A stretch of DNA of 64,000 nucleotides, from positions 1,097,148 through 1,161,147 of the forward strand of contig NW_004797384.1 in NCBI RefSeq assembly GCF_000002075.1, read 5' to 3'. This stretch comes from Aplysia californica. Lineage: Eukaryota. This document shows positions 1 to 50,082 of this stretch, one piece after another. The translations under genes were made by a program, and so were the position numbers. Every line of letters begins with the position of its first letter. Position 1 is the first letter of the stretch. The notes under the pieces are model-generated. The model did no database searches, had not been told where the DNA came from, and saw nothing but the letters and a program-made list of their open reading frames with translations.

Positions 1-437
1 GTGCTATAAAAATTATGTATTTTATTATTATTGATGGTTTGCTGCTGTTTCTTTTGCCTTCTGATTTTTCTCGGAAAGCGAGATGCTTTTACTATGAAGG
101 ATAAATAAAGTTTGCTCAGTCTTATCTTATCTTTTTGCTTCCTAGTCCTTCTTCATCTTGTCACTCCTTTTCTTTTCTTCTCAATCCAATACTAGGTTAT
201 CACGGGTAGCTAGAGTGTGCTACTGGTGGGTCCTACTTCTTTTTTGTTCCCCCAGTTGTTTCGGATGGCCTGTCTTACTTTTTTGTGGTCTTTAAGCATT
301 GTGTTCTTTTGTTTTTCTTTACTGAAACAAACATTGTCTTCTCTTACTGGTATAAGGTCAAGGGAAATGGGTGCTATGTCTTTTAAGCAAATGTTTCACG
401 TTTAATTACTCTCCCCCCCCTTTTCTCTACCTTCCAG

Positions 438-544
438 TGTCTTCGGAGGTTTTCCACAAAGACCAACAGCTGACAGACGCCAACATGCAGTTGGAAGTGC
501 TCAAAGCTGAAAAGGAAAAGATGGAAGTGAAGGCGGCTCAACTG
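438..544 (+). CDS. EEA1: EEA1 exon w1 (phase 1-0)
   Basis: ttccag acceptor, gtaagt donor; [35 protein letters not shown]. Confidence 0.85.
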
Positions 545-3500
545 GTAAGTGGATGTTATTGTGCGTCCTGAATGGTATGTCCATTCTTGCTTTGTTTTGT
601 TTGGGTTTTTGTTGTGTTATTTTCCCTTTTGTGTTGTGCGTGGTTATAAACAAATGAAATCCATCAATCTGATAAAACTGTGTGTTTTTGTATACCATAA
701 ACCTGGATGTGAATGAAAATAGAAAATAGAATCATATTTAACCTTGCAGATTTGTACTGTTTTGTTATTAAGAACATTCATTGTTTTTGAGGGTTCTATT
801 GAGAATGTTATAGATTATATAATAATAATAATATATGACATTCGTATAGCGCTCTACCCCGATTAAAGTACACAGGCTCTGAACGCTTTACAATACAGTA
901 CAACATACAACAGTAACATAAAACGTGTTCTGACAAAAAGAAAATTACTCGAAATATTCATCTTATTGATTTAAAAACAGAAACGACCTCAGCTGAGATT
1001 TGAATTAATCAAAAGATTTGATCTCTCTTAAAGTACTAGGTAAAGCATTCCAGATCTTGGGGCCTTGGTATTCCAATGCCCTTTCACCCATTGTTTTAAG
1101 GTTCATAGATGGCAAAAGAAATTTCTTTTTGTCAGCTGATGACCTTAAACTGCGAGTTGGAATGTACAGTCTTAACAGATATGAAAAGTATGATGGCGCA
1201 TTATCATTCAAACATTTGTGACCTAGGGTGGCCAACTTGTACAAAATTCTTTTCTCAACAGGAAGCCAATGCAATGTCCGCAAAAGAGGTTTAGCAGAGT
1301 CTCACTTTGTTTTCCGTAAAGCTAAACGTGCAGCATTGTTTTGGACAGTTTGAACTCAGCTAGTTATTTGTAAAGCAGAAAGGGTTTCATTTTGTCAGTC
1401 ATAGTAATCTACTGAGTGCTCTCAGATTTTATGAGCCTTCCATTAAAAAAAACTAAAATGTTTTGAGGAATTCACTTGACAAAATATTAAGGACCCATAT
1501 AAGTATCCCTTCAGATATATGAAATACTTTTGGTTTACTGAATTATTTGAGTTATCCATTAATTTGTGTGTGTGTGTGTGTGAGTGAGTGTGGTAGAGAG
1601 ATAAAGAGAAAGAAAGAGAGAGAGAGAAAGAGGAGAGAGAATCGTAGAGAGAGAAAAAGAGAGGGGGGTGGGAGGGAAGAGAGAAGAGAGTTTGGGGAAT
1701 TTCTGTAAAATGTTTCTTCATTTCATGTTGTCTCAGGCTGGAGAGATGGCCAGCATGAAAGCGCGGGTGGACGAGAGTGAAGGACAGAGGACAGCGCTGG
1801 AGGACCACATCAAGACACTCAAGGTAGGAGAAAGTTTGTCCGTCTTGCTTATGTTAACTGTCACCACTGTAAAGGCTGGACAATTTAAAAAAGTAATAAC
1901 AAAATGAAATAAATTTCCACTTTTACTGATTCCTGAGGGGAAATTTGGTTTACAATAATGTATTATACATACTTAAATATGGTTCTTAAATTCATACTGA
2001 AACGTACAGATATGCTACAAATACGGTGCATAAATACATAGATGTTATACATACTGAAACATACAGATGTACTACTAATATGTTGCATAAATATATATTT
2101 CTTGTCTTTAGGTTCAACTGGAAGAAAAAGGGACGTATGTGAAAAACCTTGAGACTCAACTAGCTCAAAGGTAATCTTTACTGCATTATACATCTCAGTC
2201 TGAGAGAAAACGAGTGAGCAAATGTTTCAAACATTGTGAGCGGAGAATGAGCAAGCTAGTGTTTGTCATCGTGTCTTGAGCTGTGTACCACTACGTGTGA
2301 TGAAATGTGTTGTAGCAAAGACTCTGCGCAAGAAAATTACGTTTGACATTTCAGGCTAAGACGTCCGGTACATCAAATTTGATTTTATTGTGTTGAAACT
2401 TCTCTACAGCTTTTTGTGGTGATTTTAAAAAAAAATTATTGGGCCTCTTACATCTTTATTTAATGGTTTATTTATTTTGTGTGACAGACTTTTTAATAGT
2501 CTCTGCAGCGTGTGCACATTAGACAGTATACCCCTCTCTGTAAATATTTGTGTGAGTGTTGTGCATGCTGCTTGATCTACTCAGTGTAATTTTTTTTTAA
2601 ACCATGTACAACAGCTAATCTCATGTACTGCCCTTTTGTAAACACTTTGTTGTAGTGAACTTCTTTTTTCACACTTAACACTGCATCAAGGATGAGAGAT
2701 TGAAAGCAACAAAACAATTCTATTAAAATGTCTTATGATAAGTTACCTCATTTTTGTAAACATGTAGGAACATTTTTTTCTCTCACACTTTATGCTGCAT
2801 CAAGGATAGGATGAGAGATTGATAACAGCTACTGCAACAATAACAGTAGTGAAATACTTAAATGTGTGTCTTTGTCAACTTTGATCTATTTAGATTTCTC
2901 GTGATAGTTTGTTTTCATAACAACAATAATTTAGGCATGGGAAAGTGATGTTCATGAAAAAACCATAATCTTCAAAGAGACCAGTGTTAAGCAGGATATT
3001 ATATCATTAATAGCAATATACTATCTCTTTCTTGGTGAAAATCTTTAACACTGATTTTTAATTTTCCTCATTGTTTTGTTCAGTGAAAAGGAGAAGGAGA
3101 AAAAGTAAGCCTGACCATAGATTTGAACCATATACTGTGTCCATTTTACCCCTTTGCTGATCCGCACCTCGTTGTAAGCATGCATAAAGGTTTGTTTTTT
3201 TGCAGTTATTGAACTGGGCAGCTGGTGAAGCGAGTTCAATGGTTTGCAGAGCTCATTCTTTATTGTGGCTTGTATTGATATTTATTCACTTGTTATGAGA
3301 TGAAGTTTCGTGTTTGGTCCTTACAGATAGGGCTGAAGCCACCTGCTCTCCCAGACAGTCTGAATTGTGTCAATGGGGGTGGGGGCTGCAGACCTGCCAC
3401 TCATCCCTATTTAACCGGGACATACCGATCCCCCACCCCAATCTCAAGCATCCTGATTTCGATTGCGTGTCCCGATTTTTTTGTTCTGTCTGTTGCGCCG

Positions 3501-6500
3501 GATTTTTCTAAAAACATACTCTATCTTCATTATATATTTATGGACCCCCCTAGAACTGAAACATTTTTAAATCAGCTTGGCAATCACCCTGGTGAATTGT
3601 CGTTGATCCCGATTTTTTTCCCCAGATCCCGATTTTTCCCCTTGAGATCCTGATTTTTAGATTTCAAAGGGTGGCAGGTCTGGGACTGGGATCAGTATCA
3701 ACCTATAAACAAAACTAGCCTGTTTTAACTCCTTTATATGAAATCACAGTTTGTTTGTCAATGTCTGACAATGATCAATGCGTCTGCAGAGGAGTTCTTA
3801 AGGAGAAACAGAAGAAATAAGGATAAAGATTAGATAATTTGTGGCTACTGCTAGGGTCAATGAGACCAATTCTGGCAGAGAAGAGTGTGCCACATTTTGA
3901 GCTTTCAGAAGCTACATTTCCACTTGTGAATGTGAACATGGAGAAGAAAACCACAAGACTCCTGTTGAAAATAACCAGTGCTGTGTAATGTTTTGCCACT
4001 CAGTTATTTTTATTTTTATTTTTGGAAAGACTTTCTATATTTACCAATGTCTTTTTAGACATGGCTCAGCATGCCCTTAGAAAGATAGTAATAGTAACTT
4101 GGACATTATGTGAAATCAAAAGTTACCTGTTCACTCTGTCAGTATGTGACTTGATTTTTTGGGAGGAAGGGAAATAAAACTGCATGATTTTTAGATTTTT
4201 GTCTTTATATTTTGTACATGCGCAATTGCAATGTGAGAATATAAAGATTATGCGTGAAACATGTCTGGCTTGTATTTGTGTGATTGTGCTATTTTCAGTA
4301 TATTAAATACGCTTAAGGGGGGGGGGGGAATAAAAATCAGTGAGTAGTAAATTGGGATAATTTTTTATTAGATTTAGCTCAGACTGGAAAGAATACTGTT
4401 GTATACTTTTGTGAATACAATTCTTAACTGCTTGGCGACTGACTATCTTAGTCATGTTTGGAAGATAGATATTTATATCTTGCCTTGACTTTCCTCATTA
4501 CTCCCACCAGCTGAGCCTGAAGTTACACCCCTCTTCTACCCCTACTCCACGCTGATTTGTATAAAATCTTGTTAAGGAATCTTTTTCACACAAGAGGCAT
4601 GTCAGGTCCTAAATCAGTGCAAAATTAGAGGAAGAATATAAATCACAATTGTTTGTGAATTGCCTCTAGCCTTATTTATTTATATCTTTGCATTGTGAGT
4701 ATAACTATGTATCTTTAAATACATATGTGAGTCAGTTGTCGAGATGGTTGGAGTCAAGCTCTGTACCATGAGTACTATTGTCATTCTTCTATGGGAATTG
4801 AGTGGCAGGTATAACACTCATCATGATTTGACTTTTAGCGTGCTTGAAAAGAGAACAGGGCTTTTCTTTTTTGCTCTCTTAAGCATCCAATGAATCAACT
4901 TACTTAAATTTCTTGAAGGTCCTGTAAGTTCTGCAAACTGGATGGAATAAAAGGCAGAGTTAGACAGAGAATAAATTATATAGAGAACTTGAACAAATTG
5001 ATGAGAGGTGAGACCAGGATGGTATGTTTTTTTTGAGAGCATTCAAGCAGAGAAATGGATGGTGAACCATGATCCCCAATGTCTGTTCCAGATCTGGCAC
5101 TTGAAGTTGAAGAAGTGAAAGAAAAAGAAGCATCCAGTTGAGATGTGTATTGGGGAAAATTTATAATGTTCAAAAAACTTATTGGTGTTCTCTCCTTGTG
5201 AGAATATGACTCAAAGCTATTTCTATGATTTTATTTAATTTACCGAGTTACCTGCTTTTTTCCCCCTTACGATGTGGCGACTTTGTGACTGCTCTTATGA
5301 TTACATCTTTTACAGAGTTTTTTTATAGACGTTTCCTCCCCTTCCCCCCCCCCCCCCCCCCTTTACCATAAGGTTGTTTTTTCCCGCTGAAGCTGTACTG
5401 TTTGGCATCTTAGAAATGAAAAGGAAAGAGATCAGGATGATAAAAATTGTGTTAGTTTCATGTATAATTCTGAAAGATATGAGTTGAGATATAATAACAT
5501 AGCCACAAAAAACTATTTGCAATGTGAGTTTCTTCAGATTGGTCTGTCCCCATCTTGTTCCCCCCCCCCCCCCCCCCCCCCCTCTGCCCATGCCCAAAAG
5601 TATCTCTCGTTCGTCTCCGTTACCCTGTTTCTTGAACATCTGAACGTAGGCTGCTGCTTCTTTAGTCTCAAATATGTTTTTGAAAAAACAAAAAACGACA
5701 GACTGAGTTGTGTATTGTTTGATTTAATGTTCTCAAGAGTATTTTTTTTTTTTTGGTGTGTTTTGAAAGTATTAAAGGGAAGCTGGTGAACTAGTTTGGT
5801 AATAGATTTTTTCAGTCTGGCTTTTTTACTCACAAAATAGATGTCACCAGTCTGTGATTGCATGCTGGTTTTAAAATGAGCGGAATCAGTATGAAAAAGG
5901 GAAATAGGCGTACAGTTATATCCTTGTTGAACGGTCCTGTCAGTATTGTGATTTTGTGTTTTGCTTTTTGCTGGAAAACATTGAAGTAAGAAGTAGAGTG
6001 GGTGATTTGTGCATGATGATAAAACTGCTTTCTCTGTTTATGTTAGAGAATTTGTGTCATGTCAATACCTTAGTACTATATTATAAGTAACTGCCCTCGT
6101 ACTTAACACTGACCAATGTCTTTGATTGAGAGAAGGGGATGGGGGGATGGGGTTGTTCCATATTTCCTTCTTTCTGCTGAAATGCTGTATCCCACTGTCT
6201 TGGTTAGACGTGGTTGGAGCAACCTGTCTAGTAATTACTTAGTTTGTATCTGTTCTGGTATTTTTAGGTCAATCAAAATTCACAGTTATGACACCTTTTG
6301 TTAATTTTTTGCTTTAAAAGTTGTTTTTTTCAAAGTGAGTTTTATAAGATAAGTAAGGATACCAACATAAGGCTAGCATAAGTACTAGAAAGGTTCTTTC
6401 TCAAGTTTTCTAGTTTTTGGAATAAAACTGGTTTGTGCTAAATTGAGCGTGAGGTGATTAAAGGTTCTTTGCGTATTATGCATGGTTGCGCAGTAGACAT

Positions 6501-9500
6501 GTTAGCTTTTCCAGGTCTAGGTATTCACTGCTCTTTTTTCCATGGCATTACCATTTGTTACAGTTTTAGAGAGAAAGATATTCATGTGTTAATGATCGAA
6601 ATTTGATGGGGAAAGTTGAGAAAGCTTGAGTAGAAGAGTTTGTGTGTAGTGAAGAAATAGGACCTACTAGTGGCTCCTTCCATTCTTCCCTTGAAATGGT
6701 ATAATATACATCAGTAGGAAACAAAATTTTTGTGTTGTGCATTTTTTGTGCTTATATGAGGCATAATGGGTCCCATCTAAAAAAGAAAATGAGATAGATA
6801 AATTTGACCACTGTTGATAGAGATACAATCTATGATGTACACAGTGAAATGGGAGTACCCGTTTTTCTATGTATGTGCTTTAAGTACAAAGAATAAACAT
6901 GTATGTGTAAGAAAAAAAATAGGGAACTGAAAATCTGTTCACTATGTGCGTGTTTGCTATATGGCTTCTGGACTTAAAAGGAATGTCCTTGAAGAAATAT
7001 GGGAACATTTTTACTTTGAGGTGTGTTTCGATTTGTAAATTTCTCATGGTCACTTACTCTGTTTTTATACAAAAGCAGTTTAAAAAAATTAATGAATAAC
7101 GTTACTTACTGGTGTCTGTGATGTAGCAATTAGGCTCTTTGCCATAGCAAACAAAAGACATGACTTTTTTAATTCACATATGGGGAGATTTTTTTATCAG
7201 GTTTCTCCACCAGTCTGTGAGAAGATTGTGTCCATGTGTCTGCATCCTGAATGATGTAGATTGTGTTGATGGGCGTAACACATTTATTGTTACAATGACA
7301 CTCTGTGTTCTGTCGTGTGTTTTAGGCCGGCAGCTGATGATGTGTTTGTGCTGAAGCAAGAGCTGGTGTCCGTGCAGACGCTGATGGACAAGATGACACA
7401 GGAGAGAGAGAAGGAGAAGGAAGAGTTGGAGAAGGAGTACAAGGAGCTCAAGTCTCAGTTTGATCAGTATGTCCTCTTGTTGTTGGGTGATTTTGTGACA
7501 TACTGTACTTGTTTGTACAGATTGGTAATAAGGAAAAGACCAAGACAATATAGATGTTTTTATTTTAAAGATCGTCTGGGCTGAGAAATGAGTCTGGGGA
7601 TCTGTCCTCTCAGCCCGGTTGACCCTGGCTGGCAGTGTTTTTAAAAAAATATTTTAAAAAGTAAATTACACTTTTATTTGTCCCAGAAAGGCACTTTGGT
7701 TTACAATGGCAAACATACATGTACCTACATAAATACATGCACAAATACATACATAAATACATACATAAATACACAATATTACATAAATACAGAACAGTTT
7801 TACAACTACAACCATGCCACTGTTGGTAGGTGGTTTGCAGGTGCTCTTTCCTATCAGTCATCTATCGTCTTTATCGCTTTTCCTTCTCTTTTGTGTTTGT
7901 TATTCTCTTGTAAAACCTCTAATCTTCTGCACTTATATGACCTCATTGTGTTGCAATTGCAATAAAACTCTTGCTGAAACTAAGGAAGGCAGGGTTGAAG
8001 CAGTCTGCTTCCTGATGATCGTTATCGTGTAGATGGGGGCACGAAACAGTTGCTATTAAAAAAGAAAATTATTGAAGACTTGTTTCTTGCTCTGTCCAAA
8101 ATACACGCAATGTCATTTTTGTTACTTAAAAATGTTGTCAACGTATTCAAACTATGTCATGGGGAGATGGTAGGACATTGGACAGGGTGTTCCTGAAGAC
8201 CGGACACTCAGGCAAAATGTTGGGTATTTGTTCCTTGTACTACAGGCAAATTTGGCTTGAAGTTTGATCTGATATTTCACTTTTTTATTTCTTATTCTGA
8301 TTTAAGTGGAACATTATCGCATATATATAAGTAGTAAAAATTTTGATTTGGTGCTTTGTTCTCTTTTGCTTTTAGTATTTCTATTGTTATTCCTGTTCTT
8401 TTCACATTATTTATTTTCATGTATACCTTTTTAGGAAGGAAACAGAGCTGAAGGAATTCAGTGTCAAGCTGCAAGAGGCTCCTAAGACAGAGCAAGTGGC
8501 CAGGTACCCTACTTTTTGTTAATAAAGAAAACGAAATTCTCCCTTCACCTGTGTCATGTCATATCAGGTAAACTTAAAAGGGTGTAAGTTTTCTTCACCG
8601 GTGTCTGTGATGTAGCATTTGGCGCTTCGTTGTTACAGGCAGTAGTTCCAAGCTCGGTTCCTGAGTGGGGAAAATCTGTATTGAGTATTTCAGTCTTTCT
8701 GCTTGGATATTGTATCCCACTCAGCCCGGTTTGGCCCTGGCAGGCAGGTAGGTAGCCAACTTCCTGAATGATCTAAATTGTGTCGATCAGGGAGATAAAA
8801 GCACCTATTCGAAGTCTTCATCTTTTTCTCCTTTTTCTTCTCCTCATCTTTCTTCTCCTACTCCACTTCTCCCCCCCCCCCCGCTCCTTGTCCTCCTTCT
8901 TCTTAATCTTCACACCTTATGCAGTTGCGAGCTCCGTAAAACCTGTACTAAAACAAACAAGATAATAGATAGCGTGCTGTATAATGTAAGATAAAAATTG
9001 AAGATTGGAAAAAGCACACTGTGTAATTCCTCTTCTGTTCTTAAAATAAAGCCCTGAGTTCTTCCTTTAAAATGGCCAAATGTATGAAATTGAGCCCTAG
9101 ATTCTTAAAAAAGACAGAAAAAAAATACAAAGATACAAATCAGTGTATTGTTTTTAAAAGCAATGAAAAGATGTATTCTACATTCTCATTTCGGTTTTCA
9201 AAACTTCCTTCCTCCCCAGCCTTCAGTCAGCTCTTGATGAGAAAGAGTCCAGTGTAGAGAAACTGAAGTCTTCTTTGTCAGAAGCTGAGAAAAAACTGAC
9301 TCAGGCAACGGAGGACAAGACTAAGGTATTCATGTCAGACAAAGGAAAGGATCTAGTGAAAAACAGGAGAAGTCCTTTAAAAAAAAAAAAAAGCCCAGGG
9401 TACTAGTCCTCAGCTTATATTAGTACCTGCAAAATATCCCTTTGAAATCAGTAAAGTAACCAGCTAAGTCGTTCACGCAATGTAGTTTTATGAAAGCAAA

Positions 9501-12500
9501 CCAAGTCAAGAACAGACATGTCTATTATTAAAAAAAGGAAAATAGACTAAGATGTGGTAGGATTAATGTGACTTAACCTGTTTTTCACATGATCTCTTCA
9601 AATGTTTTCTATTAGTGTCTTCTATAATAGTCAGGCACTTTACTATTGCGTGCAGAAGACATGAGTTCTCTTCCCATGTGGGACATTTTTTTAGCAAGTA
9701 TCTGCCTGTCTGCTAGGAGGCTGTATGTATTCTACTCAGCTTGACACTGACAGGAACGGTAGAAGTAATGATCTCTATTTCTCTCTATCTCTCTGTCTCT
9801 TTCATCTTCCCCCCNNNNNNNNNNNNNNNNNNNNNNNNNNNNNNNNNNNNNNNNNNNNNNNNNNNNNNNNNNNNNNNNNNNNNNNNNNNNNNNNNNNNNN
9901 NNNNNNNNNNNNNNNNNNNNNNNNNNNNNNNNNNNNNNNNNNNNNNNNNNNNNNNNNNNNNNNNNNNNNNNNNNNNNNNNNNNNNNNNNNNNNNNNNNNN
10001 NNNNNNNNNNNNNNNNNNNNNNNNNNNNNNNNNNNNNNNNNNNNNNNNNNNNNNNNNNNNNNNNNNNNNNNNNNNNNNNNNNNNNNNNNNNNNNNNNNNN
10101 NNNNNNNNNNNNNNNNNNNNNNNNNNNNNNNNNNNNNNNNNNNNNNNNNNNNNNNNNNNNNNNNNNNNNNNNNNNNNNNNNNNNNNNNNNNNNNNNNNNN
10201 NNNNNNNNNNNNNNNNNNNNNNNNNNNNNNNNNNNNNNNNNNNNNNNNNNNNNNNNNNNNNNNNNNNNNNNNNNNNNNNNNNNNNNNNNNNNNNNNNNNN
10301 NNNNNNNNNNNNNNNNNNNNNNNNNNNNNNNNNNNNNNNNNNNNNNNNNNNNNNNNNNNNNNNNNNNNNNNNNNNNNNNNNNNNNNNNNNNNNNNNNNNN
10401 NNNNNNNNNNNNNNNNNNNNNNNNNNNNNNNNNNNNNNNNNNNNNNNNNNNNNNNNNNNNNNNNNNNNNNNNNNNNNNNNNNNNNNNNNNNNNNNNNNNN
10501 NNNNNNNNNNNNNNNNNNNNNNNNNNNNNNNNNNNNNNNNNNNNNNNNNNNNNNNNNNNNNNNNNNNNNNNNNNNNNNNNNNNNNNNNNNNNNNNNNNNN
10601 NNNNNNNNNNNNNNNNNNNNNNNNNNNNNNNNNNNNNNNNNNNNNNNNNNNNNNNNNNNNNNNNNNNNNNNNNNNNNNNNNNNNNNNNNNNNNNNNNNNN
10701 NNNNNNNNNNNNNNNNNNNNNNNNNNNNNNNGAGGAGGTATACCAGTTTAGGAGCTACCTTCTATTTTTATTAGCTGGTTTTCATCAATTTTCATAGATG
10801 GGTGACGGGAAAAGACGAAGATAACATGTGTTAAAAGCAGAGAAATGGATGGCGAACCATGGTTGCAGAAGTTTGTTTCAGATTTTGACACTTAAAGAAA
10901 AGTTTTTCACTCTTCTCCCATGGGAAAAAGCTTTGGCAGCTGTCTTATCTAGTCTGATGTATGGGCTTCATTTCAGGTCCAGAAGAAATACATCTGTGGT
11001 GTAATGGCTAGGCTTTTTGCCATCAGGTGCCAGAGATTTGAGTTTGAACCCCATGTGGGGAAGTATCTCCATCTTTTTGTTTGGACATTGTATCCCTCAG
11101 CCAATATTTGGCCCTAGCAGGCAGGGTCAAAACAACCTGCTATTTAAATGATGTAAATCAATAATGTCTATGGGTACATAAAACATTAATAATTATTATT
11201 TCAGACCCAGACGAAACTTGAGGAAAGTTTGCAGACCTTGAAAGAGAAGGCTGGAGAAATATCTCAACTTCAGACATCAGTAGACCAGAAGGAAGAGTCC
11301 ATCAGCGCATCACAACAGGAAGCCGAGAAGCTCAAAGAAGCCCTGGAAGATCAGAAAAATGAATTGGAACAGGTGAAGTTTATGCCTTATTTAATTGTTC
11401 ATGATTTTTCTTTTGCGCTTGCTCTTCATATAACACTTTTATTAGTTGTAGTTAACTTATTTCATGGTAAGATTTATACAATAGATTAATCGTTCATGAT
11501 TTTTAGTTTGACGTATTGTATCTTTGTTTTGTGTAAAACTGTTTTGCATAAGAGAGAACTGATTATCCATTTCTGTATGTACATTGTATCTGTACTTAAC
11601 TCTTTTTTTAGTTTTAGTAGAGGTTTTCGGCGCTCGCAACTGCATAAGGTCATACGAGCGCCAGAAGATTAGAGGTGTTACTAGAGAGTAACAAACATAA
11701 AAAAGAAGACGGGGAGATAAGGTCGATAGATGTTTGATAGGAAAGAAGAAGCAGACCACACCAGAGCACCTGCCAACCACCCACGTTTCTTAACTCTTAA
11801 AAAACAGGATTAATAGCTCATTTTCACATTTCTGGTCAGCAAGGCTTATATAAACCACTATTCTTGGTTTGGGATGTATAGGAATATAGTTGTGCACATG
11901 TCATATTGAAGGAAATGGCATGCAGAAGTAGAATAGATGAAAATCATGAAAGTATGTCTTGTCTTTGTGGAGGAAAACATATTGATCGAGTTGATGCTGT
12001 GCGTCTTTTTACTCAAACAATCAAAACAAACGTTCAGAAACAAGATGTCCTGTAAATTGTGTCAAAATGACATTTTTGCTCTTTTTTCCCTTTGTCCAGA
12101 CCAAGAAATTGCTGGAGGAGAAGGGAGCGGAGCTGGAGAGTGTCCAGAAGGCGATGGGAGACTCGGCCGAGGTGTCTCAGTCCGCCATGGTGCAGAAGGA
12201 ACAGCTCCTCAATGAGCTCAAGTTCAAGGCCGAGAAAGTGAGGACTAAAAGGGGTGCCACCACTTACTTAAATATGATTATGATAATAATGACAATAATA
12301 ATAATAATAATTATTGTTATTACAATATGTGATATTTGTACCGCTCTCTACCCGGATTAAAGAACAGGGGCTTTGGGTGCTTTACAAATACAGGTAGCAA
12401 CAAGTGGACAATACATTGCAGTCTGACGAAAAATCTATGTATATATTTTTTTTAAACCCTAAAAACAAAAATGACTTGACCTGGCTATTAAATTAATGAA

Positions 12501-15500
12501 ACTTCTTTTGGAAATAACAAAAACTCTAAGCTGGAATGCTGTTTGTCTAGATAGTTTGTTCTGCATTTTTTCTTTTGTTACAATTATTTCTTTGTTTCTT
12601 TACCGATGTGATATCTACTTTTTTTTTTCCAAGGTAATCCAAACACTTTAAAAAAAATGTTGTTAGAATTAGGAAGCAGGTCTTTGTTTAAGTTTGAGAC
12701 CTGCCTGGAGCAGTCGTTTGTTTGAAAGTGTTTGATGTTGTGTACACCCGCTGGGCTGAAAAAAGATGGCATGTGCATGTCAGATGATGGATACTAATCC
12801 TATACAATTCTACACGTTTTTATTACATGCAAAGGAAATGTTGATCGGTCTCTTTGTTCTTTGTTTGCAGCTACAAGCCGACCTGGACACAAAGTCCAAT
12901 GAAATCTCTGACCTGGAAGCCCAGCTGGCCACGTCCAACAAAGTGTTTGATGAGGAGGTGAGAATTTGATGATCATTGTGTTGTCTGACATATGTCTGCA
13001 TATTTTGTTCCTTGGATTTCCCTTATTCTTGTCTGACATCAGAATTTTATAGTTTGAATTTGGGAGCCCTAGTGGCCTAGAGGTTAAGGTGTTCGCCTCT
13101 CAATCGAAGGTCTCGGGTTCGAATCTGGGTAGCGACGGAAAAATTTTATCTGAAATTGTCTCCTTTCACCCTCATTCCTTCTCTCTTGCAATATTATGTC
13201 GTCTTCTTTCGTCTCCACTTTTTTCAATCTCCCCCACACCCTCTTTGCCCCTACTCTGGGCTCCTGACTGTTTCTGCAGCCTTTCTTCTGCTACTTCTTG
13301 GCTCCTTCTTACTGCTGTCTTTCAGCCACACCCCTGATCTTCAGGTAGGAAAGATCTACACATCTCGGATAAGGGCGAAAAATCTCGGAGGTCCCGTGTG
13401 CAAGTTGTGCACGTTAAAGTTCCCTGGTGGTCGAAAATCTAAAAGAGTAGGCTTTGGCCGCCACCCGGGCAAAATCCAAAATTTCCTACCAATTGAAAAT
13501 GTTTGGTGTGTCCTGCGCGCTCATATGACCTAATGCAGTTGCGAGTGCCATAAAACACTTACCACAAAAAAAAATATTTGAATTTAAGGTGGACGAAGGC
13601 CTCAAGAGGTAGACTAAGAATTTCTTACTTTGAGAACTTTTTCAGATAGGCAAAAGAGAAAAGACCAGAGTAATTTTTTTTTTTTTTTAGAGCATTCTAG
13701 CTGAGAAATGAAAGGCGAAGAATGATTATTGCGTTCCACTACACATAGATTTGTGCAGATTCTAGTGGATTGTGTAGAGATGGTTGTAGTTGCCCTTTTA
13801 TTTGGAAAACGTTAGTCTCTCATGTGTCTGTAAAGAATCTACTGGATTGTGTTAAGATATTCGTATTAGCCCTGTTATTTGGAAAACATTAGCCTCTCAT
13901 GTGTCTATACATAATCTATTGGATTGTGTTAAGATATTTGTATTGGCTCTTTTATTTGGAAAACGTTGGTGTTACATGTGTCTATAAAGAATCTATTGGA
14001 TTGTGTTACGATATTTGTATTGGCCTGGTTATTTGGAAAACGTTAGTCCCTCGTGTGTCTATAAAGAATCTGTTGGATTGTATTAAGATATTTCTATTGG
14101 CCCAGTTATTTGGAAAACGTTGGTGTCCCATGTGTCTGTAAAGAATCTTCTGAATTGTAGAATTGTATAGAGATGGTTGCAGTTGCCCTGTAATTTGGAA
14201 AACGTTAGTCTCCCATGTGTCTGTACAGAATGTACTGGACTGTGTAGCTATGTTTCTGTCGTGCCCCACAGAGACGCTGTTCGGATGACCTGAAGTCCCA
14301 GGTGCTGGAGAGAGACGGGAGACTGGAGGAGGAGAGCAGGAAGCTGGCTCAGATGTACGGGCTGGGATTTGTTTTGTTTTTACACAGTAAATCTTGGGGG
14401 AACTTTGAGAACTTGAACAGATGGATGAAAAGGAAAAGACCAGGATGACATAAGTTTTATTTAGAGCACCCAAGCAGGGAAATAAGTAGCCAACAATAAC
14501 TACTGATATTGTTGGTACCTACAGTTAAGGAATGGAGTGGGGGGTTGTTTTAAAAAGCCGTAAAACCCTATACTACTACTACTACTACTACTGTTTTAAA
14601 AAGAAAACATTTTTATGTTCATATCTCTGCTCCAATCTATCTTTTGCCTTGTTGCTTCAGTCATTTATTCATCCATGTAGCTTCATTATCACTGTATTGC
14701 CATAGCCTGGATAAGCCTGGGTTTTATAACATCGAGTATTCTTATTCTTCTTTTTCTTACAATACTTAAGTGCTAATATCTTCTCTTCATTTGTTGCTGC
14801 CAACCATCCTCCTCCTCTGCTGCCACCTCTTCCTCCGTCTCCTGAGGTCCTCTTTGTTCAAAAATCTTTAAAATGTTTTGTGAGTAGGTTTTTAGGGATG
14901 AAAAGATTGCTTCTTACATAACAGCGTCAGAATACAAAATCTATTTTGTTAACAGCTGAGAAGTTAGTTGTACAAACAATAACATTTTGAAAAATAAAAA
15001 CACCATTTATTTAGAGAGGAGAAAGTGCGAGACGTGGAGGGCAAACTGACTGCCATGTCTGAGGAGAAACAACGCCTGGAAGGAGAACGGGAGGAGCTGG
15101 TGGCCAAGATCGAGGCTGGGGATGGAGCCAATGAGCTCATCAGTCAGATGAAGCAGGAGAACGTGAGTGAGATGAGGAAAATTTCTTTGGTGTCCGACTC
15201 TAACCATGTACCTGCCATACTAGGCTATTTTTAAAAAAAATTATTATCTATTATCTTCCAGAATTTCTCAAAATTGTTTATGGGATGTTCTTTTTACTTA
15301 TTTTAGTATCACCAGATGTAATAACAGTTGTGAATAACATAATAATAGACAAAAGAACTGTTTGACCTAATTTAGGGGACACACGATTCGAGTGAACATC
15401 GATGATGTGGTTACTTATTCAAGGATTTAATGGTAAAGATTGACATTGTTATGCTCTTAGCACATACATGGTTTCTTGAAAATTTTTTGGCATGAATGAG

Positions 15501-18500
15501 CCCCCTCTTGATTTGAAAGGTGAGAGAAGATGCAAAAGTTAATCCTCATTACTTTTTTACTATGGGTTTTATAGAGAAGCTACGGATTGATCTCAGCAAT
15601 GGTTAGAATTAAAAAGGAGTTGACCTGTTTCTTACTGTCATGCGGTTAAAGCAATATACCAAGGAGATATTGTATTGTTGTAATTTAAACCCTTTGACTA
15701 ACATTTCCTGTGCTTCGCCTAGAACTCTTTCAGGCCTGCTGAGATCATCAAAGTGCCATTTAGCGGTAACTTTCATACATAGTTGTCAGTCATGTTATGT
15801 AAAAAATCTCCTTTTTGCCCTCTAAATGAAGTTAAAACTATGGGGCTTTTTAGGGTTAATGCCATTTTCACTATCAACATTTTTTTTGTTCAGACTTCAA
15901 TAGGTGTTACTTTGTCAGCATTCTTCTGCCAACTACAACTCTACTGTTTGTATAATGTCAGTGTCATTCACTATTTTGTTTGTCCAGATGTCCAGCAGGT
16001 GGAGTTTTTTTGTCTGTCTGTCTTACGTTTTTGCTGTTCTGAATAACTTATATGATATATGTTGATGCACTTTTCTTTGTAGTCAACTTTTTGCCTGCAT
16101 TAAATAACCAGCACCGTGTCGATTTGCTTTTCTTTACTCAAACAACAACACCAATAACAGACATCCTTGCAAGAGAAAGTGTCAGCCCTTGAAACATCTA
16201 TAGAGAGCCAGACGAACGAGCACTCTGCCAAAGAGGAGAACTTGCATAAACAAGTGCGGGAGGTCAAAGGTCAGCTACAAGAGGCGGAGGCCAAAGTGAC
16301 GAAGCTGGAGGCCAGCGTGGAAGAAAAGTCGACCAAATTGAACTCAGTACAACAGAAACTGCAAAGTGTGGATGCGGAGCTCAAAACGAAGGTGAGGATT
16401 TAGGAATGTTAACTGTAATTGTAAATCTTTAGTTTTAGTTTTAGTAGAGGTTTTACGGCGCACTCAACTGCATAAGTTCATATGAGCGCCTGAAGATTAG
16501 AGGTGTTACAAGAGAGTAACAAACAGAAAAAAAGAAGAAGGGAAGATAAGGACGATAGATGTTTGATAGGAAAGAAGGAGCAAACCACACCAGAACACCG
16601 GCCAACCACCCTCTGTAAATCTTTTACTTTCCCCATCAACACAAGACGGAAAAGGTAAGAGGTTAAAAAAAGGTGATAGAAAGAAACCTGAAAGTAAATG
16701 AAGGGCTAATTGTTAGTGTTTTTTCTTCAGTAAACACAATTCAGATAGTTTAGGAGGCGGATGCTCTAACTGTTACTGTCAGGGCAAACTGAGTTTAAGT
16801 GCGTTGCAACATCGCAGCAGACAGACAGAGTAACCTGACATAAATCTTCCCCCTAATGGAAATTAAACTCGTGTCTTCTGCATGCAACTATGAACAGTGT
16901 AACTGCTACATTGCANNNNNNNNNNNNNNNNNNNNNNNNNNNNNNNNNNNNNNNNNNNNNNNNNNNNNNNNNNNNNNNNNNNNNNNNNNNNNNNNNNNNN
17001 NNNNNNNNNNNNNNNNNNNNNNNNNNNNNNNNNNNNNNNNNNNNNNNNNNNNNNNNNNNNNGCAGTTCAGACTGAAACAACACATTTATCACCTGATTAC
17101 AAACACACACACTGTTCCCTGTATCTATATAGGCGGAGCTGCTGTTAGCCTCAGAGGCTGCCAAGACCAGTCAGAGAGTGGACCTGGAGAATCACATCCA
17201 GACGGTCAACACATCCCTGGAGAAAGCCAATGTTCAGCTCACCACAGTGAAGGGACAGCTCGAACAGGTCAGTGTTTGTTTTTTTATCATAAGCTGTACA
17301 GTAATTTTCCTTATGGAGATTTCATCATTTTGTTCATATTTAACCCCTGATCTACAGCAAGCAGCTACCAGTGGCTCGCAGTGAGAACTGCTGTGCCAGT
17401 GAGTCGCTGGCAGAGGCCCGGGCAATGTCTTTTACGACGATTTCCATGTTAATTTTGTTTTTGACCTTTTACTGGGAGTTCTTTCATTTTGTCAAGTTCG
17501 AGTGGGTGTGGCACGTTTGTCCCTTTGCCCTTTATTTGGCTGAGTGGCACATGCCCCAAAGTGATTCTATGAGATATGTCTGGGTGTGCGGTCTAGACAC
17601 TAATATTACTAGTCTATGACTAGAATGCTCTTACGCACATTCCTATTACGTTTTCTCTCACAATATATACCCACATGTTTGCCAAAACATAAAAAAAGTT
17701 TGTATTTATGTGCTTTGGGGCAGGGCCTTTAATGGGTGTCAGGGAAAGAACTCAGGATAATATAAGATTTTTTAAAGCATTAAAGCAGAGAAATGAGTGA
17801 TAGACCATAATTAACGATGTCTGTTTCTGGTCCATGAAGACGGTAGGACCTTTGAAAATGTTTAACTATTTTAACATGTATATTTTCCCCACAGGCAAAC
17901 ACAGATGTAACTTCACGCAAGGAGAAGATTGCACAGCTGGAAGGGAAGCTTGGGGAACAGAAGGAGAAGTTGTCTCAGAGCAACAAGAGGGCCAACTCTC
18001 TGGAGAGGAACGTCAAAGAGAAGGTAAAGAGGTCTTCCTATTCTTTTTCTTCCTCCTCCTCGTCCTTTGTGCCTTTCTTCAATTTTCTTAACATTTTTTT
18101 TTTTGGGTCCCTTGTCCTGACTTTTAACCTTACAGTGTGAGGGGTGTTTTACCCGTACAATTTTGCATGTTGAAAAAAAATTGTTTGTGCCTGATTCAGT
18201 TTATTAAGGTTAAAAAGGGTTTTATTAGTCATGGTTTTTGTTGCTTTCAGTCTATGTAAATGATGAACAATATGGTTGGGTTATTTTCCTTTCTTGTGGC
18301 TAAATTCTGTTTTGTTTATTTTTTTACCTCTAGCTTAGACCAGTATGGCTAATTTAATTCCTCATCATACTGTCTTGTGAAAATGTTACACTGTAAGTGT
18401 TGCAGAGATGAAAGTTTTAAGGAGAAACAAAAAAACAACACAACATACTATAAAGCTTTTAACATGTATTTCATTCTTGATATTGTTTTAATAGACATTT

Positions 18501-21500
18501 TTAAAAACTGTTCGTTTGACTTGTTAAAGATTTGTGTAGAGAATGTTTGATTCCTTAAGTCATGTGTTTCAGTAAGTGTTTAAAATCTCTTGCATTAAAT
18601 AAGGAACAGTTTTGTAAACCCAATGTTTTCTGTTTCTGCAGACAAGTGGCCTTAATGAACTGGAGAAGGAGAAGAAAGAAGTGGAAGAGACACTGAGCAC
18701 TACAAAAACAAACCTGGAAGAGACGAAGGCGAAACTTCAAACAGCTGAACTACAACTGGAAACAGTAGGTCTTCTCATAACCCCCTTTTTTTCTCCTATA
18801 TTTTGGTGTTATTATGTCTAAGATAAACATGAAAGTGAGAAATATTGTCTTGTTTTGCTCCAGATAGGAGGGTCATGTGACTTCACAACTCTGCAGACCG
18901 GCATGTTCGTTCTGATTTATTTACTTTGTCCCCCTTCTGCCAACTGCTAAAAAAAAACCCATCTGCAACAGATGTAACAGCACCTTGCTCTTGGCGGAAG
19001 TGCAGAATTTCCAGATGAATAAAAAAATTCAAGGTTCTTGAAATTGTTTAGATCCTAACTTTGGGCCGATTGCTGTATGCCTGTGACTAATATGGATGAA
19101 GAGCAAATTATGATTAATTGTAGACAGGCATCTTTGGCTCTTTGCTGTCATATTCAAAAGACATGTTGGCTTCTATTGATTTGAATTACTTTACTCAGTC
19201 AGTTAGGTCCCTTTGTCTAGAATGCTGACTGACTTTGTCTTATGTGTATTGAATGTTTCTGAGAAGTACTGGTTGGTAGACTTGGAATTTGTGGTCTGTG
19301 AATGTGTGCGAAGATGTTCAATAAATGAATGAATGATATTAAAGGCAAAATGCTTAAAGATGTATGAGGTTTTATTTAGAGTATATCTGCCTGTCTGCTA
19401 GGGTGCTGTGTCCCTCTCAGCCCCTGAAGGCCTTGACAGGCAGGGTTGTAGCAGCTCGGCCCCAAAGGAGCCAAAATATGTCGATGGGACGTTAGACATT
19501 TTTATTGACAATTGCTTTTGCTGACCATACAAAATGTTGTGCTTTTCTTCCCAGGAAAAGAAGACAAGAGAGTCGGAGACATCAGAGTTGTCAGAAAAAG
19601 TCGACAGACTGAATACAGAGAAAACAGAATTGCAGGAGAAGCTGAATTCTACCGTGAGTTTGTGGGGGGAAAAGAGTTTGAAAATCTGATGGAAAGCAAA
19701 GAAGTCAAAAAGAAATGGTGCTGAAAGGAGCCTGCATGGGATGGCCAATGATACAAACAATTAGGAAGAGACACACTCTATGTTTAGGGCTCTTGAATTG
19801 ATTAAAATAAAACCCTGAACATAATATTTTCATGGAGAAATTTAAGGCTGAAGAGGCAGAGTTGGGCGTACAATAACTTTCTCATCAGGAAAAGATGAGG
19901 TTAACATAGGTTTGGGGAGCATCAGAGCAGAGAAAGAGTGGTATTCTATGATCAAAATGTTTTTGAGAAATACTGGCAGTTGAACTTGGAATTTATGGTC
20001 TGTGAATGTGTGCATAAATGTTTGCTAAATGAACGAATGACATTGAAGCTTAAAGATGTATGAACACTTAAATGATTAGTGTGCTTAAGTTAATAGCATA
20101 CATGAAAGTTCTATAAATATAGAAAATACTTTCCTTAAAGTTGAAAAAATGAATGCATTTCATTTTACAATCGGTATTTTTTTCCTTTGTAGTATTGCGG
20201 ACAATACAAGGACAAAGTATAGAAGCCAAAAACATGCATGTTTACAAGCTGAAAGGACCAAAGCGCGTAATGTCGTAAAGTCAAATGTTCGTCTTCGTTG
20301 TTTCTCAGAGTTCCAGTCTCGCGGACACTGAGAGGAAACTTTCTGACAAAAGTGCTGAATTGGAGAAGGTGACCAAAGATTTGGAGAGTACACAGGCGGA
20401 CCTGAAAACTGCACGCACAGATTTGACACAGGTACTGAGTTGTTTTAGTTATAGTTTTACTATATGCTGGAAACCGATATCTGTGGTGTCGTGGTTAGTC
20501 TCTTCACTATTGTGTGTGGGAGTGTGTGTATGTGTGTGTGTGTTTAAATGGCCTCACAATAAATATTTTTGCTTTTGATTTGCCAGTGTGTGGTTGTGGG
20601 TGTGTGTGTAAATGTGTGGGTGTGTGTGTATATGTGTGTGTGGGTGTGTGTTTGTTTGTTTAAATGGCCTCACAATGAACATTTTTCTTTTGATTTCCAG
20701 TGATAGTTCTGCATTGTAAAATACTTTGAGCCTTCTAGTCTTTACGTGCAATATAAATTCACATAATGTTATTACTTTTATTATTACAATTTTTTATTTT
20801 TTTAAAATCATTCTCCCAGAACAAAGAGAGCCTGAGCGGTCAAGTTGCCTCACTGACCACAGAGTTGGAGAAAGAGCGGAGTGCCTCGGAAGCTGCCCGG
20901 CAAGAACTGGAGAAACAGGTGAAGGGAAAGTTGTACCTTGCATGTGTATGTGTGAAGAGTGACAGAGAGAGAGGGGGAAGGGGAGCTGAGAGAAGGCTGG
21001 TGAGAGAGAGAAAGCCTACGTGTATGAAGAGTGAATGAGAGAGAGAGGGGGGGGAGTGAGAGAAGGGTGGTGAGGGAGAGAGAGAGAGCATACGTGTATA
21101 AGGAGTGAATGGGAGAGAGGGGGAAGGTGAGAGAGAGAGAGAAAGCTTATGTGTATGAAAAGTGAGGGAGAAATGGAGGATGAGAGAGAGAGAGAGAGAG
21201 GTCACACTTTATGTCATCTTGCCACTTGAGACAAGCCAGATTTGTTCTAAGGAGGTTGGTGAAGAATCTTTTTAATATTCTTGTTTTCTTTCGAAGTGGC
21301 ACCCCCCCCCCCCCCCCAGAAGTCATAATAAATTATTCCAAGCTATCTGTGTCATATGTGTTTTTTTGTTTCTTCCAATCCTAACTAGTTCCCCGATTTT
21401 GGTGTCTACAGACATGTATTTGTGTTTCCCAAAATCCTAACTTGTTCCCAGATTTTGGTGTGTCTACAGATGTGTGTTTGTATTTCCCAATCCTAACTTG

Positions 21501-24500
21501 TACCCGGACTTTGGTGTCTACGAATGTGAGTTTGTGTTTCCCAATCCGAATTTGTTCCCAGATCTCCATGTCTGATGTGTGTTTTTGTCTCTCTCCCCAG
21601 GTGTCCACTCTGAGCACTGAGAGGAACAGCTTGAGTGAGGAGAAAGTGAAACTGGTCAGTGAGATCACGGACCTCAACAACCAGGTCAAGCAAAAGTCCT
21701 CAGAAATTGACAGCCTGAAAGGGGAAATGGAAAAGGAGAAGGTGAGAGAGAGAGAGAGCACACCCTTTTTTGTTTTAATCTTAGTCAGAGTTACATGGCA
21801 TTTGCAACTCACAAATAAGTCATATTTAACGCTGAAGATTGGGGGTGTTACTAGAGAGTTGTTATACAAAGATAAAAAGGAAGAGAGATAAGGATGTTAC
21901 ATGTTTGATAGGAAAGGAGCAAATCACACCAGAGCACCCACCAACCACCCACACCCCTTTTTGAAAATGTTCGTTGATTTTTAAAATAAAGAAGATATAG
22001 TAAAGCTGCAACCTCCTCCCCCTCCCTCCTTTTGTTAGTGATGCCTTTCTTTTTCCCCTACCCTTAATTACAGTTACTGTGTCAATGTGCTTCTCTTTAC
22101 TCATACAAAAACCTCCCTGCAAAATTCAACCTTTATCATGGTGACTTGCGGTATAGTACAACTCAAGACTCATTTTTCAGAATCAGTTTGCGTCTCAAAA
22201 GTCAGATTTGGACAAAGGTCAAAAGGAGAAGGAGGCTGAATGGGAACAAAAGGCAGAGGCTTTGAGGCAGGAAATAGCTGCTGAGAAGGTAAGGGTTCGT
22301 GACTGACTGAATCATTACGGTTCCCTCTTGTGTTGGCTACTTGCATACTGTATTGTAAAGATTATGCATAGAGTTCCCTTTTGTGTTCTGTATTGTAAAG
22401 TGCATGGAGTTCAGCCTTGTGTTCTTTTTTGCAAAGTGCATAGAGTTCCCAGTTGTACTGATGTGTATTGAGGGTGTCTGACTCCAACTGTATATCTGCC
22501 AGATTAGGCCAAACACTTTTTTTTATCACAAAATATGGTATTCACAACCGTGATTATGATTGGTGATACTGTAATGTGTAATAAGAACACCCAGTGCGAC
22601 ATTTTTAGCAATTCCAAAAGGTAATAAGGAAGACATTATATTTTTCCCACTTTTCTGAAGATTGATTTCAAGCACATACACGATTAGAGTCAGACATTGA
22701 TGATATTTTTAAAAAATATAATAATCTTGTTTGTGTTAGGATATGTTTATGTTCTTTGGAGTGATATTTATCAATGTTTTTGAGGCAATGTTGAGTGAGT
22801 GAGTCTTGAGAAGGAAAATAGAATAAGAGGAGTATGAGTGTTGTTTTTGTGTGGGGGTTTGGGGGGGGGGGGATGCGAGTGAGGGAAAGAAAAGAGACAG
22901 ACAGACAGACAGAGAGACAGACAGAGAGAGAGAGTTTTGAAAATACTTATATAATCACAATGAACTTACAACGTGCTCTTTTTTAATCTTTCAGAAACAA
23001 GTGGAAGAAAAAGAAAAGACAATTCAAGATTTCACTCAGAAGGTAAGTCAACTTTGTCTCTATTGATAAACTGAGTCCTTTTACTCAATGTCTCTTCTCT
23101 GTAGAATTTAAAACAGCCTAACAATAGTGATATGATTTGTACCATGGTATCGTAAAGATCATGCTTGTAGCTGTCAAACAAGGTGTTCAGTAATCCAGTT
23201 GGTGGGTGAATGACAGTACCGCTAGTAGGTCCTGTTTCTTTTATTTATTTATTTTGTTTCTGTCCGTCTGTCTTACTTTCCCCTATTAGTAAATGATTGT
23301 TATTATGTTGATATGCTTCTCTTTAATCAAATAAACAACAAGGAAATAGAACCCAACTTAAAACACTTACAGGAAGATGGGCTTTTGATCAACTACTTCA
23401 AGCATTCATTGGATTATATTTTGTTTATATTCCTGCTCAATATGCCAAAAATGGTATGTCGTTTTTGTGAACATCTTTTGTGAAAACAACAGCTTAAAAG
23501 ATGTTACGGAAAAGAGCGACAATAATGATAATGATATATAGATAATTATGACCAAATCTTTCATTGAATTTGCACCATGGCAATGAAGGAGCTCAAATTG
23601 GTTCATTTTCAATTCTGTCCTGATATGTATGTTTCAGTGAAACAGTGTGTATTCATCCAATTACACTGAGATTGGATACTTTTAATTCCTTTTCATAGGT
23701 GGTTGGAGAAGCCACTGGTAGGTCCAACTTTTTTTCTTTCCCTCTGTAGTTTCTGTCTATCTGTCTTGTTTCTTCCCTGCCCTAAATGACCAATATTGTG
23801 TTGATCTTCTTCTCTTTCCTCAAACTCAAACGATAGCATTTTTTCTTCTGTCTTTGTGAAGGTCTCTGAGTTGGAGGGTGTCAAGTCAAGTCTTGAAACT
23901 GCCAAGCAAGAGCTGGAAAGCCAGTCAGCAGAAAAGCAGAACAGGATTGATGCTCTGGTAAGTTGAAGGACTTTTATATTGGAAATTTACACTTTTTGTA
24001 GGATTCACATGCTGTCAATGTGACTGACATAATCTTATTTTACATGGTATGGCATTTGTTGCTTTGTGAAAAGGCTTTCCACCATTGCCTGCAGGAGACA
24101 AAAGTTTGATTTCTGACGGAGGAAATAATAAAGGTGCCTTCAAAGTCCTTACTGGTGAATTTCCAAAGAACCATTTATGCAATTGTGGTTTGACTTATAA
24201 CATTAGAACTGTGCTAAGAAAATAAGTTGAGTGGGGGGGGGGGATAAAAAGGATTAGAAAGTAATGAACATGAGGGAGAAAAGGAAGAAAAATGTTCAAT
24301 TTTTCTGCAACTGCTAGTTCGGAAAGAAATAGAGAGAGAAAAAGTATTGATATTTAAAAGTTACTGTGTAGATTTGTTTTAAAGTAACGCAGTTCTACTT
24401 TAACCCTTAAGATTCTGGTCCCTGATAAATGTTTGCCCGATAAGCGCAATCCCGCGAGGGAGACATTTGAGAGCAACTGAATAAAAAAAATATTCGGAAA

Positions 24501-35662: not shown

Positions 35663-36096
35663 GAGGCAGAGTGGTAAAATCAGGTGCTCGTCAAAATAAT
35701 GAAAGTCAAGAAATTTGCATTTTCCAGCAAGTTTGGGAAGTTTTATAGCATTTTAATTTTGTTATTTGGTTCAACACCTTTCATGCCCATTAAAGAGCAC
35801 ATTTCTGTGTAGATTTTACTGAAACACGTTGATTAAAGGCAGAAGAAATGCAAATTTCAATTTCCACGGACTCTCAAGCCAAAGAAATAACTCAACTTTG
35901 GCGGCCATTTTCTCCCTAATTTTACCTCTGAAACCAGATGACCCTCTCCTCCTTCAATCACACATTCTCGACTTCTATTCAACATAGATGGATATTATTT
36001 TCTCCCAAAATAAGGAAAATGGACAGGCCTTAAGATCATGCCATCAACTCCATATGCCCAAAAATTGACGAGAGCCTGATTCCATTGTCGTGCCAC
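35663..36096. mobile_element. TIR DNA element of about 430 bp; second copy in opposite orientation at about 57120-57540
   Basis: TIR core aatcaggtgctcgtcaa / ttgacgagagcctgatt; the interior matches 57120-57540 in reverse complement (ttggcggccattttctc, tctcgacttctattcaa); the GAGGC terminus is Sola-like but unconfirmed. Confidence 0.75.
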
Positions 36097-49025: not shown

Positions 49026-49134
49026 ATATCTTGATTTAGAATGTTGATCTACATCAAGTGAACTTCCTTATACTGGTCTTGACCTCTTGTCATGTTCCTC
49101 ATCAAGTGCCAGGTTTACTCTTTACTCGAAATTA

Positions 49135-49960: not shown

Positions 49961-50082
49961 TATTGTCCACGTTTTGAAGGAATTTTTATACACTGATTTC
50001 ATGAAACATGTAGAATAGATCTAGGGGGGAATAAAAACGCTAGATCTAGGTAATTTAGAGATAATATACTCTAGATCTATAT

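Follow-up and report, generated by a model that had tools for sequence, protein, structure and literature searches.

Tails of short intronic retroposons are enriched beside coding exons, and point towards them, in Aplysia californica

The 100 nt before a splice acceptor are a textbook exclusion zone for transposons, and single retroposon insertions at acceptors are known from disease cases, in which the tail or the duplication rebuilds the splice signal. In mammals, the 100 bp next to exons are poor in SINEs, above all on the acceptor side, while human Alus are sense-biased at 20-200 bp from exons, their antisense copies carrying cryptic acceptors (PMC3088655). The non-LTR element TRE5-A of Dictyostelium inserts in one orientation about 50 bp from tRNA genes with TFIIIB/TFIIIC; this targeting is near-absolute and has been shown experimentally (PMC3159450). 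Bivalve SINEs accumulate in genic regions, where insertions have been counted by compartment, i.e., exon, intron and flank (PMC11481361, PMC4824008). In gastropods, LP-SINEs are headless, short retroposons with flanking target-site duplications and tandem-repeat ends, and Aca_CORE SINEs are tRNA-headed elements of about 226 bp (PMC4758252). The accessible text of the mollusc SINE papers covers families, partners and genic accumulation rather than tail-to-exon geometry (PMC4758252, PMC11481361, PMC4824008, PMC5786205). No report of a tail-to-exon enrichment of SINEs was found in a literature search that covered few subscription papers.

The stretch of DNA analyzed here, referred to as the window, comprises 64,000 nt of A. 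californica contig NW_004797384.1 (positions 1,097,148 to 1,161,147). On its forward strand, 32 coding exons (w1 onwards) at 438..33,390 join into a single open frame of 1,255 codons. The predicted product ends in a C-terminal FYVE domain preceded by a coiled coil; this layout and the label used in an earlier note on the same DNA suggest the name EEA1-like for the host gene. Among the RNA-read joints listed, at least 11 supported GT-AG junctions at 17,263-26,299 (introns in w13-w25), and the w21-w22 junction was absent. The window also encodes a Kelch protein with 88% identity to a Biomphalaria protein and 86% to an Elysia protein. An Rfam scan of the window gave no match at gathering score, which spoke against an identity of the repeats as intronic snoRNAs, and ARAGORN detected no tRNA gene in it. 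Minisatellites were seen before w10 (units of about 77 nt, 13757-14245), ending just before w19 (about 40 nt, 21353-21584), after w27 (32 nt, 28510-28821) and just past the EEA1 stop (C-rich units, 33430-33720). An inverted-repeat family, F3, occurs at 54541-54616, 30150-30324, 49129-49225, 49886-49963 and 63528-63707, one copy lying about 45 nt upstream of Kelch exon 2. Two copies of about 430 nt of the MITE F1 are found in opposite orientation at 35659-36084 and 57132-57544, and decayed frames at 43080-44190 resemble, by eye, a hAT-type transposase remnant.

The earlier note had placed sense-strand tails of a repeat family, D, at 108, 81, 17, 74, 35, 32, 53 and 46 nt before the acceptors of w1, w8, w12, w20, w22, w27, w29 and the last EEA1 exon. 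Measurement gave nearly the same values, i.e., 107, 81, 17, 74, 36, 37 (32 by HMM end), 53 and 46 nt. The corresponding forward-strand matches are located at 202..333 (41.5 bits; tail about 105-107 nt from the acceptor), 11990..12024 (a weak tail remnant of about 11 bits), 16007..16146 (two pieces of 17.6 and 33.5 bits, the tail inside the branch window), 22033..22111 (3' half, 38.7 bits), 23696..23830 (full length, 104 bits), 28014..28157 (full length, 63.5 bits), 29841..29977 (full length, 101 bits) and 32821..33215, a cluster of D (32821-32967), family C (32976-33171) and a weak D tail. The distances for w8 and the last exon derive from weak, tail-only matches of 10.7 and 9.2 bits; among 780 unrelated acceptor zones, 2 and 4, respectively, had scores as high. 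A feared confusion of D with ordinary pyrimidine tracts was dispelled by an HMM trained on 29 copies from outside the window, which found the window copies at E values of 2e-31 to 9e-10 and gave no hits in decoy (reversed) DNA.

Other tails behaved similarly, with small shifts in distance. Sense copies of family B, a SINE with a tRNA-like head by eye, end 32 nt before w4 (7089..7293, 85.7 bits), 7 nt before w7 (10990..11197, 111 bits, with an A-rich end) and 42 nt before w16 (19367..19512, 3' part only, 68 bits), where about 40, 17 and 55 nt had been claimed. An RTE-type sense tail (17731..17842, 48 bits) ends 52 nt rather than about 40 nt before w14, and the distance from a sense family C tail (55841..56015, 132 bits) to the final exon of the Kelch gene (56093) is 77 nt, as noted. 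On the reverse strand, family C tails lie 225, 34 and 24 nt past the donors of w7 (11598..11794, 202 bits), w12 (16426..16623, 200 bits) and w19 (21766..21963, 123 bits), close to the 230, 40 and 32 nt given before. The placement of an antisense L2-type tail past the donor of w8 (12323..12497, 32 bits) was also correct, and its distance was not: 85 nt by HMM end instead of 50 nt. The counter-examples already recognized, a sense RTE copy at 14405 and D copies at 23198..23338 (79 bits, full length, mid-intron, 523 nt from the acceptor) and 55250..55379 (72 bits, in a Kelch intron, about 710 nt from the acceptor), stand, and sense D copies at 26786..26909 (50 bits, lacking the tail end, 437 nt from w26) and 32,821 are to be added. 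An antisense D copy lies past the EEA1 stop at 34195-34327. Past the Kelch gene, 58041-62064 contains six more B/D copies, all on the forward strand, which hints at a further forward transcript or a long 3' region.

The 110-nt zones before the acceptors represent 3,410 of 29,183 nt of EEA1 intron sequence, the 12% originally estimated. The count of about 11 out of 17-18 sense B/D copies in these zones had too low a denominator: 20 hits reached at least 18 bits, 9 of them within 110 nt, and inclusion of the two weak D tails gave 11 of 22. In the window by itself, five of eight intronic D copies lie near acceptors (1.4 expected, P = 0.005), and three of 11 B copies do so (1.5 expected, P = 0.16, not significant).

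Family D is a repeat of about 135 nt that has a well-defined 5' boundary and terminates in (CAAA)n, C measures about 180 nt and ends in (CTAAA)n, and B measures about 206 nt and shows tRNA-like box motifs in its consensus by eye. C and D begin sharply at a common, non-tRNA head (alignment score 60 vs. a shuffle maximum of 47); local alignment scores of B with D and with C were not above those of shuffles. All three families end in a foldable 3' hairpin, and the elements, 130-206 nt in size, include 5' truncations and contain no coding frame. Target-site duplications were detected in 88 of 154 C/D copies, as compared to 15 of 462 shuffled pairs; they are mostly 9-16 bp long and more distinct in C than in D, which is older. 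Since the duplications occur far beyond chance, these elements are regarded as target-primed retroposons. Copies of C are commonly inserted right behind or within tails of D, C, and F7, resulting in same-strand chains. F5, a tRNA-headed SINE of about 510 nt at 13066-13577, carries a C-type tail, and F7 is another body with the same tail, an arrangement indicative of module swapping. In the consensus of D (e.g., 23696-23830), a motif similar to a donor is followed at about 60 nt by a pyrimidine tract with CCCAG at its end, an arrangement resembling a mini-intron within the element; this AG has been lost in two thirds of sense copies.

By visual comparison, the 3' end of a bivalve I/Nimb LINE (PMC11481361, supplement file 4) and the family C tail appear to agree in their hairpin, which has an ATGACC loop, and in ending with GCCGTAAAAC; the tails of B and D look similar to this LINE end as well. 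Judged from this likeness, a LINE partner common to B, C, and D would probably be of the Nimb type. None of 20 RNase H loci, out of 150 listed, ends directly in a C-type tail; one of the 20 has such a tail about 210 nt beyond its stop. The head motif of C and D was absent from the four supplement files of PMC4758252 that were searched.

To place these observations beyond a single gene, HMM mapping and signed distances to splice sites were applied to 54 regions with dynein, myosin, and kinesin genes, which yielded 938 gap-free, phase-consistent introns (827.5 kb); the annotated genes are those of these three motor-protein families and EEA1. Exons were called from homologous proteins and a coding model, a procedure that recovered 29 of 31 EEA1 exons, 27 of them exactly, with one extra call. 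Introns with N or a broken phase, five elements overlapping called exons, and hits below 18 bits were excluded, and the null model placed each copy uniformly inside its own intron. Sense B/C/D tails ended within 110 nt of an acceptor in 116 of 362 cases (53.0 expected, P = 1e-18). Family C, not D, is the strongest carrier of this excess (C, 74 observed and 31.3 expected; D, 26 and 13.7; B, 16 and 7.9). The mirror arrangement described in the earlier note, antisense copies just past donors with the tail towards the upstream exon, was also recovered (28 of 90 within 110 nt vs. 12.9 expected). Head-facing placements, 37 sense copies near donors and 11 antisense copies near acceptors, were not enriched, and the tail-minus-head statistic reached 96, with a maximum of 43 in 20,000 shuffles. 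Held-out data showed the same excess (61 vs. 28.4 expected for sense copies at acceptors, 13 vs. 6.9 for antisense copies at donors), as did myosins and kinesins (35 vs. 16.9). The excess occurred in 33 of 35 genes and survived cluster-level and repeat-collapsed nulls. The tail-to-exon rule is real, genome-wide and unexpected, and is not peculiar to EEA1.

For family C, the excess over expectation was 4-6 fold at 10-40 nt from the AG, about 3 fold at 40-80 nt and absent by 110 nt. The last 10 nt were nearly empty (one C copy vs. 2.4 expected), the nearest copy ending 9 nt from the exon. Per repeat-free kb, sense copies reached a density of 1.26 near acceptors, 0.44 near donors and 0.26 mid-intron, and antisense copies 0.30 near donors, 0.12 near acceptors and 0.08 mid-intron. 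In dynein region C472 and others, antisense C tails were seen 3-16 nt past donors, one of them supplying donor positions +4 to +6. About 22 dynein heavy chain loci occur in the genome, more than the usual set; some, such as C26 and C2481, may be haplotype duplicates.

An annotation-free count over the genome, in which the exact C-tail motif was followed by an acceptor motif, gave 182 cases at a near distance (5-35 nt) and 130 at a far distance (205-235 nt; P = 0.002). The ratio of 1.4 becomes about 2-fold or more after subtraction of a chance background of roughly 87, which is based on a rough copy estimate. As a head-facing control, donor motifs ahead of the C head were counted. There were 51 near and 77 far cases, of which 3 and about 28, respectively, belong by eye count to another repeat, leaving about 48 vs. 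49. Other repeats were analyzed with the same exons and null. Pooled inverted-repeat elements showed a mild, symmetric enrichment of 1.3-1.7 fold (36 and 38 of 170 at the two intron ends vs. 27.1 expected), and part of the exon-side excess is therefore general. L2-tailed SINEs were found near acceptors in sense orientation in 3 of 17 cases (2.5 expected) and near donors in antisense orientation in 6 of 26 (3.9 expected), RTE tails in 0 of 9 and in 4 of 10 (1.5 expected), and F5, with its C-type tail, near acceptors in 2 of 8 (1.3 expected). F7 was left out of this comparison, one mis-joined element having distorted its expectation. The sense tail-to-acceptor rule thus belongs mainly to the hairpin-tailed families; the RTE and L2 tails grouped with it in the earlier note did not, at these small numbers, clearly obey it in other genes.

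The excess was 2.0-2.6 fold in all five divergence classes, and young copies displayed the pattern as well (full-length C below 5% divergence: 8 of 20 near acceptors vs. 2.7 expected). An apparent lack of excess below 10% divergence (4 of 33 vs. 3.8 expected) was a single-consensus effect that disappeared when subfamily consensuses and a larger data set were used. Intact duplications flank young copies that lie 15-26 nt from the AG, one of which duplicates the AG itself; since the duplications are intact at these distances, the observed acceptor-side position is the point of insertion. Near-acceptor copies occurred at a rate of 9-17% per intron at any host intron length, while the number of mid-intron copies scaled with length. 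The enrichment was equal on both strands (2.3 and 2.2 fold; 2.1 and 2.0 fold for B alone). Within genes, the exon downstream of the tail was 1.8 percentage points richer in GC and the upstream exon was without excess; exons before antisense copies showed no GC excess (n = 28), and no GC step towards the tail was found around mid-intron copies (tail 0.370 vs. head 0.391, P = 0.05). Distance and enrichment were unaffected by exon length. Of the two causes put forward in the earlier note, oriented insertion beside exons is favoured by the flat age profile, the duplications, the independence of intron length and the strand mirror. Its specific versions had mixed results: the GC-richer exon agrees with them, and the exon-length prediction failed, as did the methylated-CpG version, no dependence on CpG depletion or exon CpG being detected.

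On balance, these data incline us towards an insertion bias beside exons of likely Nimb-type LINE machinery, followed by filtering through selection. The machinery common to B, C, and D would nick the DNA on the exon side, at a distance of 10-80 nt from the exon edge, and prime there. Under standard target-primed reverse transcription, synthesis would start, in either favoured placement, from the exon-side end of the nick, and tethering of the enzyme to exon chromatin, or to a polymerase or spliceosome paused at the exon, would yield the tail-to-exon geometry. Selection would likely trim the products afterwards. Insertions less than 40 nt from the AG may survive for two reasons: the A/C-rich tail can take over as branch region, and AG occurs only 2-3 times in a sense copy of C or D. 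Antisense copies, with 17-25 AG, would mostly be purged. A part for selection is suggested by the near-empty zone next to the AG and by the intronic strand ratios (sense:antisense) of 208:39 for C, 98:11 for D and 56:40 for B, in which the AG-poor families C and D are biased 5-9 fold towards sense; F5, which has 57 antisense AGs and no strand bias, counts against an AG-driven origin of this bias. Motif matches of C form long same-strand runs, as gene-strand bias would predict. Insertion and early selection are not directly separable, because the examined copies are probably all fixed, and no empty alleles were detected among the joints listed for three DNA runs.

Survival alone, the main rival and a less probable cause, would start from uniform insertion in transcribed DNA. 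Pyrimidine-rich sense copies would mimic 3' splice regions when in mid-intron and be lost before fixation, but would do no harm directly upstream of a true AG; antisense copies with a cryptic acceptor would survive mainly when too near the donor to form an intron. Fast purging would also flatten the age profile of fixed copies, GC-rich exons may tolerate disturbance better, and the sense strands of C and D contain 64% pyrimidine and hardly any AG. The internal AG of D is retained in 31 of 94 sense copies vs. 7 of 11 antisense copies (P = 0.09), partly as a linked subfamily trait. Moreover, 58 loci centred on well-preserved C/D copies lacked a tail-facing excess: placements within about 130 nt of an exon comprised 3-4 sense/tail, 3 sense/head, 2 antisense/head and no antisense/tail, some nine exon-adjacent cases in all (P = 0.04-0.06 vs. 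gene-anchored proportions), and one of the four Pfam-confirmed exons is tail-facing. Yet survival alone requires loss of about 80% of mid-intron sense copies, going by the densities near acceptors and in mid-intron, and the density is lower still genome-wide. The 20-mer of C averages 10 per Mb per strand over the genome (a motif-count estimate rather than one from random intergenic stretches) vs. 22 on the sense and 5 on the antisense strand of genes (35 genic motif hits); an average below the genic sense density is hard to reconcile with purging in all other DNA. The strands of B are compositionally alike (52% pyrimidine, 12 vs. 13 AG), yet show the same fold, and no such loss from mid-intron is seen for other repeats of comparable length.

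Co-option, in which acceptor copies would be favoured and kept for an improved branch point in their tail or an improved pyrimidine tract in their body, appears improbable as the cause. The tail is kept in 114 of 116 near-acceptor copies vs. 180 of 246 elsewhere. Among 49 copies whose end is less than 40 nt from the AG, 45 have their best-scoring branch candidate inside the element or at its end, a result largely forced by geometry; the weak branch motif of this genome also limits this comparison. However, tails and hairpins of near-acceptor copies showed no extra conservation (0.119 substitutions per site in tails within 40 nt vs. 0.122 in others), branch scores were like those of ordinary branch windows, and the excess reaches 40-80 nt, where the host branch window stays intact, as it does in 65 of 114 near copies. 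A benefit would be needed in about 12% of all introns, as 111 of the 938 sampled introns hold a retroposon ending within 110 nt of the acceptor (50 within 40 nt), and the antisense mirror past donors is left unexplained. Selective retention, the other cause offered in the earlier note, is not supported by these results, and a branch or tract role probably explains only the tolerance of such insertions. Priming of the tail on short A/C-rich microhomologies that happen to be more frequent at acceptors (sense strand) and at donors (antisense strand) is very improbable as the cause. Many duplications open with 1-3 bases resembling the tail, and the tails of other SINEs are a common landing site of C; nevertheless, a weight matrix built on 66 sites that were defined by duplications and lay away from exon ends predicted 1.0-1.6 fold near acceptors and 0.9-1.2 fold near donors vs. 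the 2.5-6 fold observed for C at 10-80 nt, which largely refutes it. An artefact of exon calling or of the null model would be a legitimate concern with exons from an in-house script (homology hints and a coding model) in three motor-protein families, and is scarcely credible given the recovery of EEA1 exons, the control repeats, the annotation-free count and the introns with homology support for both exons (73 vs. 35.1 and 22 vs. 9.1 expected).

If the preferred insertion bias is true, retroposons would have a targeting rule that depends on exon structure, and insertion sites would preserve, like fossils, a record of exon chromatin in the germline or of co-transcriptional splicing in a mollusc. 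Should survival be responsible instead, selection on short repeats in mid-intron must be far stronger than assumed. The abundance of family C, about 200,000 copies genome-wide by crude scaling, makes insertion and selection directly testable with population data. A wider proposal, which we offer tentatively and rate as short of probable, is that the Nimb-type LINE machinery of gastropods reads exon boundaries, through nucleosomes on exons or through spliceosomes on polymerase that has paused, and that its passengers are inserted beside exons with the tail first. Bodies free of AG and tails resembling branch sites would then have evolved for survival in this niche and the branch regions of thousands of introns would have been rewritten, as in an exon-tethered counterpart of tRNA-gene targeting.

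By description, C and D resemble the LP-SINEs, being headless and having target-site duplications and tandem-repeat ends, and B, with about 206 nt and a tRNA head recognized by eye, resembles the Aca_CORE SINEs in length (PMC4758252). Studies of mollusc Nimb-tailed SINEs give, in their accessible text, neither splice-site distance nor orientation (PMC11481361, PMC4824008). Mammalian introns share with those of A. californica that SINEs show orientation and splice-site biases near exons, and the enrichment of B, C, and D at acceptors is the reverse of the mammalian depletion (PMC3088655). Going by length, B may be related to the CORE-SINE Aca_CORE_2. Retroposon insertions at acceptors, elsewhere isolated cases, concern about one intron in eight in Aplysia. 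With TRE5-A, the three families share a fixed orientation, a fixed side and a short distance from a landmark; this landmark is a Pol III gene for TRE5-A and a coding exon for B, C, and D, whose bias is statistical and 2-5 fold (PMC3159450). With a landmark other than a Pol III gene and a tether that is putative, B, C, and D are similar to TRE5-A in manner, but not members of its type.
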